From assembly GCF_003334765.1 (NCBI RefSeq), contig NZ_QOWT01000002.1: a stretch of DNA of 64,000 nt. One strand, written 5' to 3'. Numbering within the stretch: the first letter of the stretch is position 1; each line of letters opens with the position of its first letter. Under the pieces are notes generated by a model. That model had not been told where the DNA came from and searched no databases. It saw only the letters and a list, made by a program, of their open reading frames with translations. Source of the DNA: Escherichia coli. GTDB taxonomy: Bacteria; Pseudomonadota; Gammaproteobacteria; Enterobacterales; Enterobacteriaceae. Made by a program: the position numbers and the translations under genes. Positions 15,493-27,279 of the stretch are shown one piece after another.

Positions 15493-16188
15493 TTAATAAA
15501 GCAGTGAACCAAGCAGACCGATACCAGCACCGATACCAGCACCCCACGGAGTTGATGAACCAATTAATTTCGCAAGTCCAGCCCCAGCAATAGCACCAGA
15601 CGCACCTCCGCCAATAGCAGATTGCATTGCTGATGGTCTGTTGGCATTTGCCGCTGCAAGAGCCGCACTTTGCTGCGAAATCTGACTCATGTTGTTGGCA
15701 TATGTCTGCCCGGCGTTTGCCTGACCTTGCAGTGCGCCAAGACCAATATTTGCCAGATTCTGGTAGTTGTTCATCTGACCAGATAGCCATTGCTGACCAA
15801 GCGTTGGTGCGATTGTTGCTAACTGATTACCGGTTGCAGTGGAACCCAATCCACCTGTTGCTTCCGCTGCCGCCAGACTCTGATAGCGAGCCTGACCAGC
15901 AAGATCTTTGTACTGCTGAGAGTTGTAATACTGGTTAAGTGCCTGACCTTGCCCTTCCAGAGACGATAAGTTCTCGAGGCTGCCGACATACTTATCAGCC
16001 AGAGGAGTAAACGGCTTCAGGTTGTTCATGATGGTGTTGAACTGCTGATTTTGCAGGTCTGCGGCATACTTCTGAGCTTCTGCTGCATACTTTGCGCTTT
16101 TATCAGAACTGCCACCTTTCCCGCCTTTTTCAGGGCAATAAGGTTCCTCGCCGCGCAGTTTTCTGCCCAGCTTAAATGCATATAACAT
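15493..16188 (-). CDS. Ejection protein, P22 gp7-like (C-terminal 231 codons of the 460-aa ORF)
   Basis: From MLYAFKLGRKLRGEEP... the ORF is Q/N/G/A-rich with a Gly-rich hydrophobic C-terminus; length matches P22 gp7 (about 229 aa). Confidence 0.45.
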   Translation of the reverse strand: MLYAFKLGRKLRGEEPYCPEKGGKGGSSDKSAKYAAEAQKYAADLQNQQFNTIMNNLKPFTPLADKYVGSLENLSSLEGQGQALNQYYNSQQYKDLAGQARYQSLAAAEATGGLGSTATGNQLATIAPTLGQQWLSGQMNNYQNLANIGLGALQGQANAGQTYANNMSQISQQSAALAAANANRPSAMQSAIGGGASGAIAGAGLAKLIGSSTPWGAGIGAGIGLLGSLLY

Positions 16189-16875
16189 GGCTAACGCCGA
16201 GATGCCGTATTGCGCATAGCTCATACAATCAATTTCGCCTTCGCAAAGTACAACCGCCCTCACGCCAGCGTCCAGAGCCTGCCATCCGAACAGACAAGGT
16301 TCGCAATCACCTTCTGCCATAATGACTTTCTTCCCGTCCGGGCGCTCAGTGCTGATTCGCTTGACCTGCAACAACTCACCATCGCGTTTGTACGGAATCA
16401 CCAGAGCATCCAGTTCTCGCTCTCCATTCCACACCTTGCCGCTGACAACCTCGTAGCGCTTTACGATTTCTGGCGATATGCCACGCGATTGCAGGTACTC
16501 AAGATGGGATTCTGTTCTGGTAACGTAGCGGGCGATTTTCTTGCGATCAGGTCTGGAGAATTTCTTCTCACGTCTGGCATCGAAATGGTGATCGTCATCC
16601 TTGATACCGAGAAATGCTTTCGCTTCCTGCATAGCCTGATGCAGGTTAATTCCACGACATGCCATCCACAAATCAAGCATGTCACCGCCGTCTCCCTCAG
16701 CGAAATCAGCCCATTTTTTCTTGCCGCTAAGGTTGACCTTAAGGCTGTTTCCCTTGTCACCGTTGACGTTACCGGCAACCCACTCATGCCCCTCTTTCTT
16801 GCCGTTTGGCAACAGGTGCGGAGCCACCCTGTCAACCTGCGCCCAAAGCAGGTCGCTAAGTTCACTTGGCGTCAT
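16189..16875 (-). pseudogene. Truncated toprim-domain DNA primase (N-terminal 229 codons) fused in frame to the gp7-like gene
   Basis: Degenerate zinc-finger-like WADFAEGDGGDMLDLWM then toprim motif VVLCEGEIDCMS; no downstream DxD motif; directly follows O-like gene. Confidence 0.5.
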
Positions 16876-18353: not shown

Positions 18354-18397
18354 TCCCGCATTTCGGCGGGAATGAGGACCATGACTGTTAAAGAGCG
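18354..18397 (-). promoter_or_regulatory. nutR: boxA CGCTCTTTAACA (18386..18397) and boxB hairpin TCCCGC-CGAAAT-GCGGGA (18354..18371)
   Basis: Read on minus strand just downstream of cro; boxB identical to the nutL copy. Confidence 0.6.
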
Positions 18398-20028: not shown

Positions 20029-20069
20029 GCTCTTTAACATTGATGGGATTGTCCCGCCGAAATGCGGGA
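20029..20069 (+). promoter_or_regulatory. nutL: boxA GCTCTTTAACA (20029..20039) and boxB hairpin TCCCGC-CGAAAT-GCGGGA (20052..20069)
   Basis: rrn/lambda-like boxA followed 12 nt later by 6-bp stem hairpin identical to nutR boxB. Confidence 0.6.
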
Positions 20070-24513: not shown

Positions 24514-24921
24514 ATGAACAAGATTGACTATCAGGCACTGCGTGAAGCGGCAGAGAAAGCCGGTGAAGATAAGTGGCAGGCTAAAAAAATAAATGGTGAT
24601 TTTTTCGTTATTCGTCACGGTAGTTATACAAGACAGCATGGCTACACATCGTATCAACCCATTGCGGAGATTGATTGTAAGCAAGTCCGGGATTTTGTTG
24701 CCAAGGCTAATCCGGCTACCGTGCTGGAATTACTGGATGAACTGGAAGCAGCAAAAAAGCGCATTGCAGAACTGAAAGCGCGGGAAATACTGCTCCCGGA
24801 ACGTAGCAGCATGCTTCATCGAACAGATTTTCACGATGATTACCAAACGGTAATGGCATACAAAGTTTCTGAAGTCATCGATGCAATCCGCGCTACTGGC
24901 ATTCGCATCAAAGGAGAGTGA
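24514..24921 (+). CDS. Hypothetical phage protein (Ead/Ea22-like region)
   Basis: 135 aa ORF, 1-bp gap from previous ORF. Confidence 0.45.
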   Translation: MNKIDYQALREAAEKAGEDKWQAKKINGDFFVIRHGSYTRQHGYTSYQPIAEIDCKQVRDFVAKANPATVLELLDELEAAKKRIAELKAREILLPERSSMLHRTDFHDDYQTVMAYKVSEVIDAIRATGIRIKGE

Positions 24922-24922
24922 T

Positions 24923-25552
24923 ATGAGCGCTATAACCAAAGAACGTATCAAATTATTCATTAAAAATCCGCTTGATAACGGACTTACTCGTGGCGAACAA
25001 ATGGAACTGGCACGAATTGCACTGGCATCACTGGAACGCGAACAGATTCGCCACGAGCATGCCAAATGGTCTGACTCCACATTTGGCTGCGTTGGCCCCA
25101 TTGGTCCACTGAAACACCTCTCAAAAGAGGCACTGGAAGCCGCAGCCGAACCTGACGATCTCAGCGAGTGGGCTGATATGCAGTTCCTGTTGTGGGATGC
25201 ACAGCGCCGTGCTGGTATCAGTGATGCTGAAATTACCGCTGCTATGGAAAATAAATTGAAGATCAACATGGAGCGCCAGTGGCCTGAGCCAAAAGATGGT
25301 GAGCCTCGCTTGCACATTAAAGAACCCGGCAACTCTCCGGTAACTCCGGATGGTTGGATAAGCTGTAGTGATCGAATGCCGGAAGACACCAAAATGTTAC
25401 TGGCATTTAGTCAAGGTAAAATCGTGGCCGCATATTGGAACTGGGTTATAAATCCAATTGATTACAAAAAATATAGAGCTTTCACGTATTTATCAGGATA
25501 TATCTTGGATGACGTAACTCACTGGATGCCGCTACCAGAGCCTCCACTTTGA
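24923..25552 (+). CDS. Hypothetical phage protein with DUF551-like C-terminus
   Basis: SD AAGGAGAG before ATG 24923; C-terminal ...HWMPLPEPP typical of lambdoid early-region proteins. Confidence 0.5.
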   Translation: MSAITKERIKLFIKNPLDNGLTRGEQMELARIALASLEREQIRHEHAKWSDSTFGCVGPIGPLKHLSKEALEAAAEPDDLSEWADMQFLLWDAQRRAGISDAEITAAMENKLKINMERQWPEPKDGEPRLHIKEPGNSPVTPDGWISCSDRMPEDTKMLLAFSQGKIVAAYWNWVINPIDYKKYRAFTYLSGYILDDVTHWMPLPEPPL

Positions 25553-25647
25553 AAGCGAAGCTTATACATATCTTTTACATCAGCAATCTATTGTTAATCT
25601 CCAATCAATGTTACGTTGTCATCTCACTCATGCTTTGGAGGTAGTGA

Positions 25648-25828
25648 TATGTCTTGTCCAAAATGCGGTTCTGGAAATATTGCAAAAGAAAAAACAATGC
25701 GTGGATGGTCTGGTGATTATGTGTGCTGCGATTGCGGATACAACGACTCTAAAGACGCATTTGGAGAGCGTGGTAAAAACGAGTTTGTTAAAATTAATAA
25801 AGAACGCGAAGGCAACGAAAAAAGCTAA
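25648..25828 (+). CDS. Small zinc-ribbon protein (CPKCG...CCDCG)
   Basis: SD GGAGG before ATG 25648; two CxxC pairs. Confidence 0.5.
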
Positions 25829-25891
25829 TTTATTTATTCATATATGAAAACAATGTAACCAATATTCGAATTGAAGAACTGAAAGAACACC

Positions 25892-25916
25892 AAGCCGCCT
25901 GATGGCGGTTTTTTAT
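25892..25916 (+). terminator. Rho-independent terminator (AGCCGCC-TGAT-GGCGGTT + T-run)
   Basis: GC-rich hairpin followed by TTTTTTAT. Confidence 0.7.
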
Positions 25917-25924
25917 TACCTGAT

Positions 25925-25940
25925 TTGCAGGTTCGATTCC
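25925..25940. repeat. Internal partial argW copy TTGCAGGTTCGATTCC (T-arm segment)
   Basis: 16-nt identity with 5601..5616 of argW, located upstream of torI. Confidence 0.6.
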
Positions 25941-25959
25941 CTATTCGGAGATAGCACTC

Positions 25960-26160
25960 ATGCAACACGAACTACAGCCTGATTCACTGGTTGATTTGAA
26001 ATTCATCATGGCCGATACTGGCTTCGGTAAAACCTTCATCTATGACCGGATTAAGTCCGGCGACCTGCCAAAAGCCAAAGTTATCCACGGGCGAGCAAGA
26101 TGGTTATATCGTGACCATTGTGAATTCAAAAATAAGCTCTTAAGCCGCGCCAATGGGTAA
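25960..26160 (+). CDS. torI: TorI: recombination directionality factor (excisionase) and TorR inhibitor
   Basis: 66 aa MQHELQPDSLVDLKFIMADTGFGKTFIYDRIKSGDLPKAKVIHGRARWLYRDHCEFKNKLLSRANG; recognised. Confidence 0.85.
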   Translation: MQHELQPDSLVDLKFIMADTGFGKTFIYDRIKSGDLPKAKVIHGRARWLYRDHCEFKNKLLSRANG

Positions 26161-26232
26161 AATAGCGGGTAAAATATTTCTCACATCTAAAAAACACCAT
26201 TCCAATCAATCCCCTGCCGCTTCAAGTAGATG

Positions 26233-26248
26233 TCTGCAGGGGACACCA
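26233..26248. repeat. attR core: 16-nt direct repeat CTGCAGGGGACACCAT
   Basis: Identical to argW 3' end at 5616..5631. Confidence 0.7.
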
Positions 26249-26343
26249 TCCTTGTGTTTATCCCTAAAACCACATAAAAACCGTAAATTAAATTCGAACT
26301 AGCAGGCCGAATAAGGCACACCAGGAACTCGTGGTTTTATTCA

Positions 26344-27279
26344 TTATGAAGTGGTTTTTACCTGTTCTCTTAGCCAGATAATAAACGCTTCAATTTTTGG
26401 CCACTGCCTGCCCGGTAATGTGGTGATGTAATAATGCTGATGGCATTTCACCGTCATATCGCCAAACGGCGCGACGAGCTCACCACTGGCAAGCCTTTTT
26501 TGTACCAGGCGTTTTCTTCCCATCGCCACCCCAATATGATTCATCGCGGCAATAACAGCTAAATCAGAACGATCAAAGCCAATTCCAGAAGATGTCGGCA
26601 AATTAACCGCATAATGTTGCGCCCAACTATGCCATTCATCCGTACCGGAGTCGTTGCTCCATGCCTGTCTGTCATGGAGCAACGTACAGTGACACAGGTT
26701 AATTACCGTGTTGGTTAAAGCATGTCTTTGAGCGTATTCCGGGCTACATACTGGCAGGATTTCTTCATCCATCAGAAAGTGATGAGTGAGTTGCGCTGAC
26801 GGCGCATCATCAAAGTAGATCGCCAAATCGATTCCGGCACGTTGCAGATTGACGTTGTCATTACCAGTGAGCACGGTGAGCGAAATAGACGGATACCGGC
26901 GTGTAAAGTCACCTAATGCGGGCACCAACCAGCATTGGGCGATAGAGGGCCGGGAATACAGAGTTAACGTTCCCGATAACTCCTGATTTTTGATATCAAG
27001 AATTTCCTGGTTCAGGGTATCCAGCGACGATTTTAGCGCCCAATAAACACGTTTCCCCTCGTGCGTTAATTCCACTTTGCGATGGGAACGAACAAACAAC
27101 TGAATGCCCAATTCTTCTTCCAGCTGATTGATACGGTGACTTACCGCACTGGGGCTCAGCGACAATTCCTCTGCCGCCAGGGCGAAGGACTGATGCCTGG
27201 CAGCCACTTCAAAAGTATGCATTTTTGATAATTGCCAGCCGTTAAGCAGCCGATTTCTTATTTCACGAAGGGGTTCCAT
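26344..27279 (-). CDS. dsdC: LysR-family activator of D-serine utilisation DsdC
   Basis: Recognised; ORF 26344..27285, start probably MEPLREIRN. Confidence 0.9.
   Translation of the reverse strand: MEPLREIRNRLLNGWQLSKMHTFEVAARHQSFALAAEELSLSPSAVSHRINQLEEELGIQLFVRSHRKVELTHEGKRVYWALKSSLDTLNQEILDIKNQELSGTLTLYSRPSIAQCWLVPALGDFTRRYPSISLTVLTGNDNVNLQRAGIDLAIYFDDAPSAQLTHHFLMDEEILPVCSPEYAQRHALTNTVINLCHCTLLHDRQAWSNDSGTDEWHSWAQHYAVNLPTSSGIGFDRSDLAVIAAMNHIGVAMGRKRLVQKRLASGELVAPFGDMTVKCHQHYYITTLPGRQWPKIEAFIIWLREQVKTTS

Follow-up and report, generated by a model that had tools for sequence, protein, structure and literature searches.

The small predicted zinc-ribbon gene upstream of torI in a defective Escherichia coli prophage corresponds to eaG of P22-like phages

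The short open reading frame found just upstream of torI in the 64,000-nucleotide stretch of Escherichia coli DNA studied here (hereafter the window) is, on the basis of sequence comparisons, the eaG gene of P22-like and lambdoid phages. This gene was already known, and the first-pass annotation that had singled it out from the DNA letters was a correct reading of a real gene. We favour, with a probability of roughly 55%, the reading that eaG is the last gene of the ea region in the PL operon, and that it encodes a non-essential, early zinc-ribbon accessory protein that is not dedicated to TorI or IntS. Comparisons among phages indicate that eaG travels between phages and operons as a compact cassette, composed of a motif-containing leader, a strong Shine-Dalgarno sequence, the ORF and an intrinsic terminator. 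Since eaG has been annotated for decades in P22, HK620 and many other phages and prophages, its identification matters little, and the useful outcome is mostly negative, namely the placing of eaG outside the TorI/IntS excision machinery. The features of the window that define the gene and its surroundings are as follows.

24881-25552, plus strand: ead/Ea22-like protein with a DUF551-type C-terminus (EaA type), named after RefSeq and Pfam; upstream neighbour of eaG
25553-25648, plus strand: eaG leader, 96 nt, from the upstream gene to eaG
25638-25642, plus strand: Shine-Dalgarno sequence GGAGG, 6 nt 5' of the eaG ATG, read from the sequence
25649-25828, plus strand: eaG coding sequence, 59 codons and a stop, from the ORF call and its translation
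25855-25914, plus strand: 60-bp segment with the terminator, the right-hand boundary of the eaG cassette, from the alignment with lambda, P22, HK620 and HK629
25960-26160, plus strand: torI, excisionase (RDF) of the KplE1/HK620 module; neighbour of the eaG cassette, outside it

The translated product, MSCPKCGSGNIAKEKTMRGWSGDYVCCDCGYNDSKDAFGERGKNEFVKINKEREGNEKS (59 aa), is 100% identical to HK629 gp32, 98.3% identical to HK620 hkaD and 94.9% identical to P22 EaG (NP_059587) over 59/59 residues. It matches PHROG 2945 over its full length (protein residues 1-58, E = 1.7e-31). In a 99.8% identical E. coli region, the same CDS is named 'Eag protein' by RefSeq (WP_001277767.1) and is flanked by the ead/Ea22-like protein and torI. 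A phage genome search returned 40 phage records with EaG, and the cassette was detected in 271 of 5426 complete E. coli genomes (ca. 5%). The P22, HK620 and HK629 copies share with the window the gene itself, its leader, its Shine-Dalgarno sequence and the downstream terminator, and they occupy the same slot at the far end of the ea region in the PL operon. The gene order RecT, gp157, DUF2737, ead/DUF551, eaG and terminator found in the window agrees with that of HK620 and P22. These copies differ in what comes next: eaC lies between eaG and xis in P22, torI directly follows eaG in the window and HK620, and a lambda-type xis follows in HK629.

Most of what the first-pass annotation had read from this locus was borne out. 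It had placed a 60-aa ORF at 25648-25828; the ORF is real, while its start and length were off by one, the ATG being at 25649, the end of the stop codon at 25828 and the product 59 aa long. The strong Shine-Dalgarno sequence it had described is the GGAGG at 25638-25642, 6 nt before the ATG, and the terminator that it had seen ahead of torI is a hairpin at 25892-25911, with torI starting at 25960. The two CxxC pairs are present as C3-P-K-C6 and C26-C-D-C29, C27 being an extra cysteine that is unconserved among homologues. Its description of a small zinc-ribbon protein agrees with the conserved cysteines, with the AlphaFold2 model and with zinc ribbons as the nearest structures (see below). The homology search that it had recommended assigned EaG to the P22 EaG family (PHROG 2945), and the lack of conservation in related prophages that would have counted against its reading was not observed, the gene being conserved. 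It had also stated that the protein had no assigned function, and in keeping with this, searches by gene name, protein accession and 'Eag protein' yielded no functional study of eaG; the literature matches were genome-annotation tables only, in which the function is given as unknown.

EaG relatives are few. Searching 1.84 billion representative proteins exhaustively with HMMER (E <= 0.001) revealed only 17 of them, including a spurious one (a 3904-aa low-complexity protein). A word-indexed search with the single EaG sequence returns almost exclusively near-identical or frameshifted copies; a profile search widens the family to Cronobacter, Enterobacter, Yersinia, Serratia, Vibrio and Colwellia, with relatives that are mostly named 'Eag protein' by their sources. 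In an alignment of 13 homologues, of which ten are divergent (32-56% identity, 55-85 aa), C3, C6, C26 and C29 are invariant down to 32% identity. M1, P4, S8, K13, D23 and F38 are likewise kept in the divergent homologues, and G7 and G22 nearly always. Between divergent eaG pairs, synonymous sites are saturated (pS 0.64-1.0); pN is 0.17-0.34 per site over aligned codons 1-40, rising to 0.5-0.7 in the tail. Among 74 close copies on viral contigs, 72 carry an intact 59-aa eaG in which substitutions cluster after residue 40, and the two others are frameshifted, both at the A-run 25689-25694. Taken together, the RefSeq CDS, the PHROG match, the invariant cysteines and the contrast between pN and pS identify eaG as a real coding gene, far beyond a chance ORF. 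The same substitution pattern indicates that residues 1-40 are under purifying selection and that residues 41-59 form a charged, poorly conserved tail.

When modelled by AlphaFold2 with the family alignment, residues 1-40 reached a pLDDT of 71-84 and the tail ca. 52; a single-sequence model was poor (pLDDT 66). The modelled core comprises three short strands (including residues 11-13 and 24-26) and a short helix (35-38), and the two conserved CxxC knuckles are ca. 19 residues apart. Residues 1-40 are thus predicted to be a single C4 zinc ribbon of a generic kind, and the last ca. 19 residues are probably disordered in view of the model. The TFIIB/Brf N-terminal ribbon, the archaeal HVO_2753/aS21-type proteins and VdcD/ShdD have, like EaG, two CxxC knuckles on beta-hairpins. 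Sequence and fold searches led to generic zinc ribbons only (TFIIB/Brf, HVO_2753-type, VdcD and Rpb9/RPA12); the Foldseek matches have an rmsd of ca. 2 A over 30-34 residues, none being significant at fold level (E > 0.5), and the EaG model found nothing at E <= 0.001 in the PDB and BFVD. Sequence searches of the PDB, with the single protein and with the profile, returned generic zinc ribbons only, the best (E = 2.3e-4) being an HVO_2753-type protein. Unlike generic zinc ribbons, the EaG family has its own S8, K13, G22-D23-Y24 and F38, as well as the charged tail. Counted from the sequence, the protein is near neutral, with 11 K/R versus 10 D/E, which speaks against a DNA mimic and against a strongly basic nucleic-acid binder. 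No match to the TraR/DksA family (lambda Orf73 type) was found in Pfam or NCBIfam, even at E <= 10, and a scan of NCBIfam gave no family at its cutoff.

The gene is framed by two conserved non-coding segments. On its left side, the leader carries a 15-nt motif (ACATATCTTTTACAT, window 25566-25580). In the form ACAYAWCHTTTWMAW, this motif was found in 83 of the 101 loci collected, exactly once per locus that has it and on the eaG strand. It lies ca. 83 nt upstream of the eaG-like ATG wherever spacing was examined, including homologues with 47-56% identity (for instance at 5920-5934 in L007, 5918-5932 in L020 and L021, 3920-3934 in L098 and 3918-3932 in L101). The leaders with ACAYAWCHTTTWMAW are enterobacterial, and AGGAG is kept in the leaders of divergent homologues. 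More generally, eaG-like genes have unusually long leaders (ca. 65-150 nt) in operons that are otherwise tightly packed. Several candidate roles for the leader were considered and set aside. A boxA/nut site was rejected because the motif is more than two mismatches away from the boxA 11-mer and perfect boxA sites occur elsewhere in the prophage; a sigma-70 promoter, because spacing and hexamers are inconsistent; and an RNA helix hiding the Shine-Dalgarno sequence, because the RNAalifold consensus is weak (-2.6 kcal/mol) and broken in the window allele. A search of the whole window with Rfam at gathering thresholds found argW and the sar RNA only, and nothing at eaG or its leader.

On the right side, a terminator scan identified an intrinsic terminator 64 nt after the eaG stop, with a hairpin at 25892-25911 followed by T6-A-TT. 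The hairpin folds at -13 kcal/mol (z = -3.7 versus shuffles), and none of 200 shuffled sequences folded as well. The 60-bp segment that contains it (25855-25914) is kept in 76 of 76 close eaG loci from a set of 80 viral contigs and occurs in 2487 of 5426 complete E. coli genomes. The eaG homologues in L009, L011, L014 and L102/L103 likewise have terminator-like hairpins after them. These 60 bp of the window are identical to the 3' end of lambda orf55 with its terminator hairpin and are non-coding here; eaG replaces the body of orf55, and the orf55 tail is retained as non-coding DNA. Lambda orf55 occupies the same slot as eaG, directly upstream of the pI/xis region, and shares the last 60 bp; its protein is unrelated to EaG, with a predicted alpha/beta structure without cysteine pairs. 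One report describes orf55 as closing the lambda exo-xis region and mentions a fragment of it near xis in phage 933W (PMC8614690). As a separate observation, the six-A run at 25689-25694 inside eaG is a frameshift hot spot at which several database proteins are also shifted, and two such frameshifted copies (P0027 and P0029) read on into the orf55 tail, ending in VTNIRIEELKEHQAA.

The prophage that carries this cassette is bounded by argW (5556-5630) and by an attR core (CTGCAGGGGACACCA, 26234-26248), with dsdC, dsdX and dsdA after it, which places it at the KplE1/HK620 attachment site. It is only ca. 20.6 kb long (window 5630-26250) and defective. On the minus strand, the ORF 15493-16872 begins with a primase-like N-terminal half and continues as the C-terminal half of a DNA-ejection protein, a fusion that implies the deletion of nin, lysis, terminase and head genes. 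No terminase, portal, coat, lysis or nin gene was found among the ORFs of at least 90 aa between argW and attR, part of which were annotated. The genes left include the integrase, the tailspike, Ant with the sar RNA (11180-11246), two ejection-protein genes, an O-like replication gene, the repressor and the PL operon. Because the prophage has lost its morphogenesis genes, eaG may be without a role in this strain. The early-left operon has been retained, the repressor being followed by RecT, gp157, DUF2737, ead/DUF551, eaG and torI, and two perfect boxA sites flank the repressor gene.

20029-20039, plus strand: boxA GCTCTTTAACA, perfect match; presumed nutL, upstream of eaG on the same strand
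18386-18396, minus strand: boxA GCTCTTTAACA, perfect match; mirror site, likely nutR

This pair likely represents the nutL and nutR sites of an N-type antitermination system. With a boxA upstream of it on its own strand, eaG should be reached by N-modified PL transcripts that continue past its terminator. Following the lambda/P22 paradigm, PL would drive eaG transcription once the prophage is induced; a polymerase that had been modified at nutL (boxA 20029) would pass the ea genes, eaG and its terminator and continue into torI, and unmodified transcripts would end at the eaG terminator. EaG itself might act as a small binding module on a macromolecule of the host or of a competitor during early lytic growth, by likeness to what other small exo-xis proteins are thought to do. 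Two publications describe the exo-xis genes as early, non-essential and modulating development (PMC6213356, PMC8614690), and in reports on lambda and the Shiga-toxin phage Phi24B the region is said to influence the lysis-lysogeny decision and prophage induction (PMC3824215, PMC6213356). Determining the target of EaG would, if achieved, contribute to the understanding of the exo-xis/ea region of lambdoid phages, which is still poorly known.

The first-pass annotation had suggested that a small zinc-ribbon protein near an excision module could be a regulator, with possible effects on torI/intS expression or on prophage excision. The position of eaG agrees with this proposal, being immediately upstream of torI in the window and in HK620, and of a lambda-type xis in HK629. 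The torI promoter is moreover uncharacterised (PMC2951348), and one study reports that genes of the exo-xis region influence lysogenisation and induction (PMC3824215). However, the cassette and the excision module behave as separate units. Identity among the window, P22, HK620 and HK629 is at least 97% from ca. 25540 to the T-run of the terminator and breaks off directly beyond it: the window and HK620 continue with a KplE1-type torI module, P22 with eaC-xis-int, and HK629 with a lambda-type cII site (pI), xis and int. The eaG cassette stops at the terminator and at a mosaic boundary, before the torI module, and the same protein precedes three unrelated excisionase/integrase pairs. Downstream of eaG in 80 viral contigs, torI was found in 21, a lambda-type xis in nine, eaC in five, and other genes or the contig end in 45. 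The homology between the window and K-12-type KplE1 starts only at ca. 25910; K-12 KplE1 has ypdJ in place of eaG, and its excision is promoted by plasmid-borne torI alone (PMC2951348). Distant homologues are also found far from any int or xis gene, in the nin region between replication genes and ninB/ninE, just before HNH/terminase genes, and in a replication module with UDG and PolA. Together, the three unrelated modules, these distant contexts and K-12 KplE1 make a dedicated role of EaG in TorI/IntS recombination unlikely, and we regard the regulatory proposal as very improbable; EaG would be neither a component nor a dedicated regulator of this recombination. These comparisons show the cassette to travel independently of the integrase or excisionase type. 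That the ORF could be a functionless relic, or could have arisen from faulty annotation, is hardly credible. Such a view could point to the defective state of the window prophage, to the two of 74 close copies frameshifted at the A-run and to the very small size of the family (17 representatives in 1.84 billion proteins), but it has to face cysteines and an ORF length kept across genera down to 32% identity, a selection pattern that indicates constraint, a strong Shine-Dalgarno sequence and 72 of 74 copies intact.

Two further explanations assign EaG a more specific function. We hold it quite unlikely that EaG is a Lar/RalR-like protein, which would alleviate type I restriction and boost the modification of incoming DNA, or would act as a RalR-type DNase toxin. 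Rac Lar/RalR is, like EaG, a ca. 60-aa phage zinc-ribbon protein with a CPxCG ... CxxC arrangement, encoded after recombination genes and near xis, and Rac ralR/lar is similarly placed after recT, two genes before xis. The Pfam model Lar_restr_allev (PF14354) matches EaG residues 2-41 (E = 7.6e-5, 23.3 bits) and, at E <= 0.001, six of 13 family members; this match is also precomputed for several close homologues. Yet family members match the TFIIB zinc ribbon (8/13) and HVO_2753 (7/13) equally well, so that the Lar signal is that of a generic zinc ribbon, and the curated model TIGR03655 scores EaG at 14.9 bits versus a cutoff of 39.6. Aligning the EaG family with RalR by hhalign gave a probability of 33% over 24 ribbon columns and required a 4-residue gap. 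A segment C-terminal to the ribbon is considered typical of Lar-family proteins in general. The PF14354 match to EaG ends at position 43 of the 58 in the model, and the C-terminal EALERWNKR segment of RalR has no counterpart in the conserved EaG columns, only F38 being kept after C29. One Yersinia prophage (L103) carries in a single operon both a Lar-family gene (PF14354, 4146-4349) and, two genes downstream, an eaG homologue (5001-5168), which argues against the equivalence of Lar and EaG. A search with RalR retrieved close RalR copies only, too few for a useful Lar profile. Membership of EaG in the Lar family is not supported by these comparisons, and the 'Lar' label that Pfam-based pipelines may attach to it is unjustified. 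An unlikely, though somewhat better placed, explanation is that eaG is a moron, expressed from its own promoter in the lysogen and beneficial to the host, for example through exclusion or anti-phage defence. It could account for the intrinsic terminator directly after eaG in the window and most homologues, for the long leaders (ca. 65-150 nt) with their shared motif, and for the -10-like TATNAT that several homologues carry ca. 33 nt before the ATG. In Yersinia, the copies are flanked by two terminators and their leader contains a perfect TATAAT, and a Vibrio homologue with 36% identity (L104, 5001-5165, plus strand) is divergently transcribed from a PD-Lambda-1 defence gene (3025-4518, minus strand, E = 1.5e-191). 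As these Yersinia and Vibrio copies look autonomous, expression from PL only may not hold throughout the family. For the gene in the window, however, a sigma-70 promoter scan of 24800-26400 found no promoter-like site; in the allele shared by P22, HK620 and the window, the -10-like hexamer is only TACGTT, and there is no consistent -35. PADLOC defence models matched neither EaG nor five of its homologues, and Vibrio provides just one such context, with a homologue at 36% identity. Around this Vibrio gene, DUF4238 and KAP-NTPase genes give the locus the look of a defence island.

Compared with these explanations, the reading of eaG as the last ea-region gene of the PL operon, encoding an early accessory protein, is the one that we prefer. 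In a bolder and rather improbable version, EaG-like proteins would form a distinct, narrow family of gammaproteobacterial phage zinc-ribbon effectors, carried by a self-regulated mobile cassette and acting on a target in the host or in a rival phage through a mechanism that has no relation to those of Lar, TraR and Com. If true, the cassette would consist of the 15-nt motif, the ORF and the terminator and would often be accompanied by an EaA/DUF551-type gene, with a product serving counter-defence, exclusion or host takeover. The association with an EaA/DUF551-type gene is indeed frequent in the loci compared. BLASTP analyses revealed that the upstream neighbours in P22 (eaA), HK620 (hkaE), L105 (3984-4925), L007 (5081-5908) and L014 (667-1293) are mosaic relatives of the protein encoded at 24881-25552 in the window. 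Given that the pair occurs in PL operons as well as in the nin region of PR operons, the two genes may move, and perhaps act, as a unit.

Other distant eaG homologues sit at the distal end of PL operons, a putative excisionase and the integrase being encoded 3-7 genes further on. In several prophages, near-perfect LexA boxes (TACTGTATATAAATACAGTT and TACTGTGTATGCATACAGTA) were observed just downstream of eaG homologues, before a small gene (79-84 aa), at ca. 1640-1660 in L014 and at ca. 6215-6235 or 4215-4235 in L020, L021 and L101. Their occurrence suggests an SOS-controlled gene beside the integration module in those prophages. In the window itself, torI is flanked by two stretches of sequence that directly follow one another in the 3' half of argW: argW nucleotides 46-61 (TTGCAGGTTCGATTCC) recur exactly at 25925-25940, just upstream of torI, and nucleotides 61-75 form the attR core downstream of it. 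An exact match of 16 nt is expected by chance ca. 0.002 times in the window by our estimate, and in the HK620 annotation the spot matching 25925-25940 is assigned to the cII site of the integration promoter.
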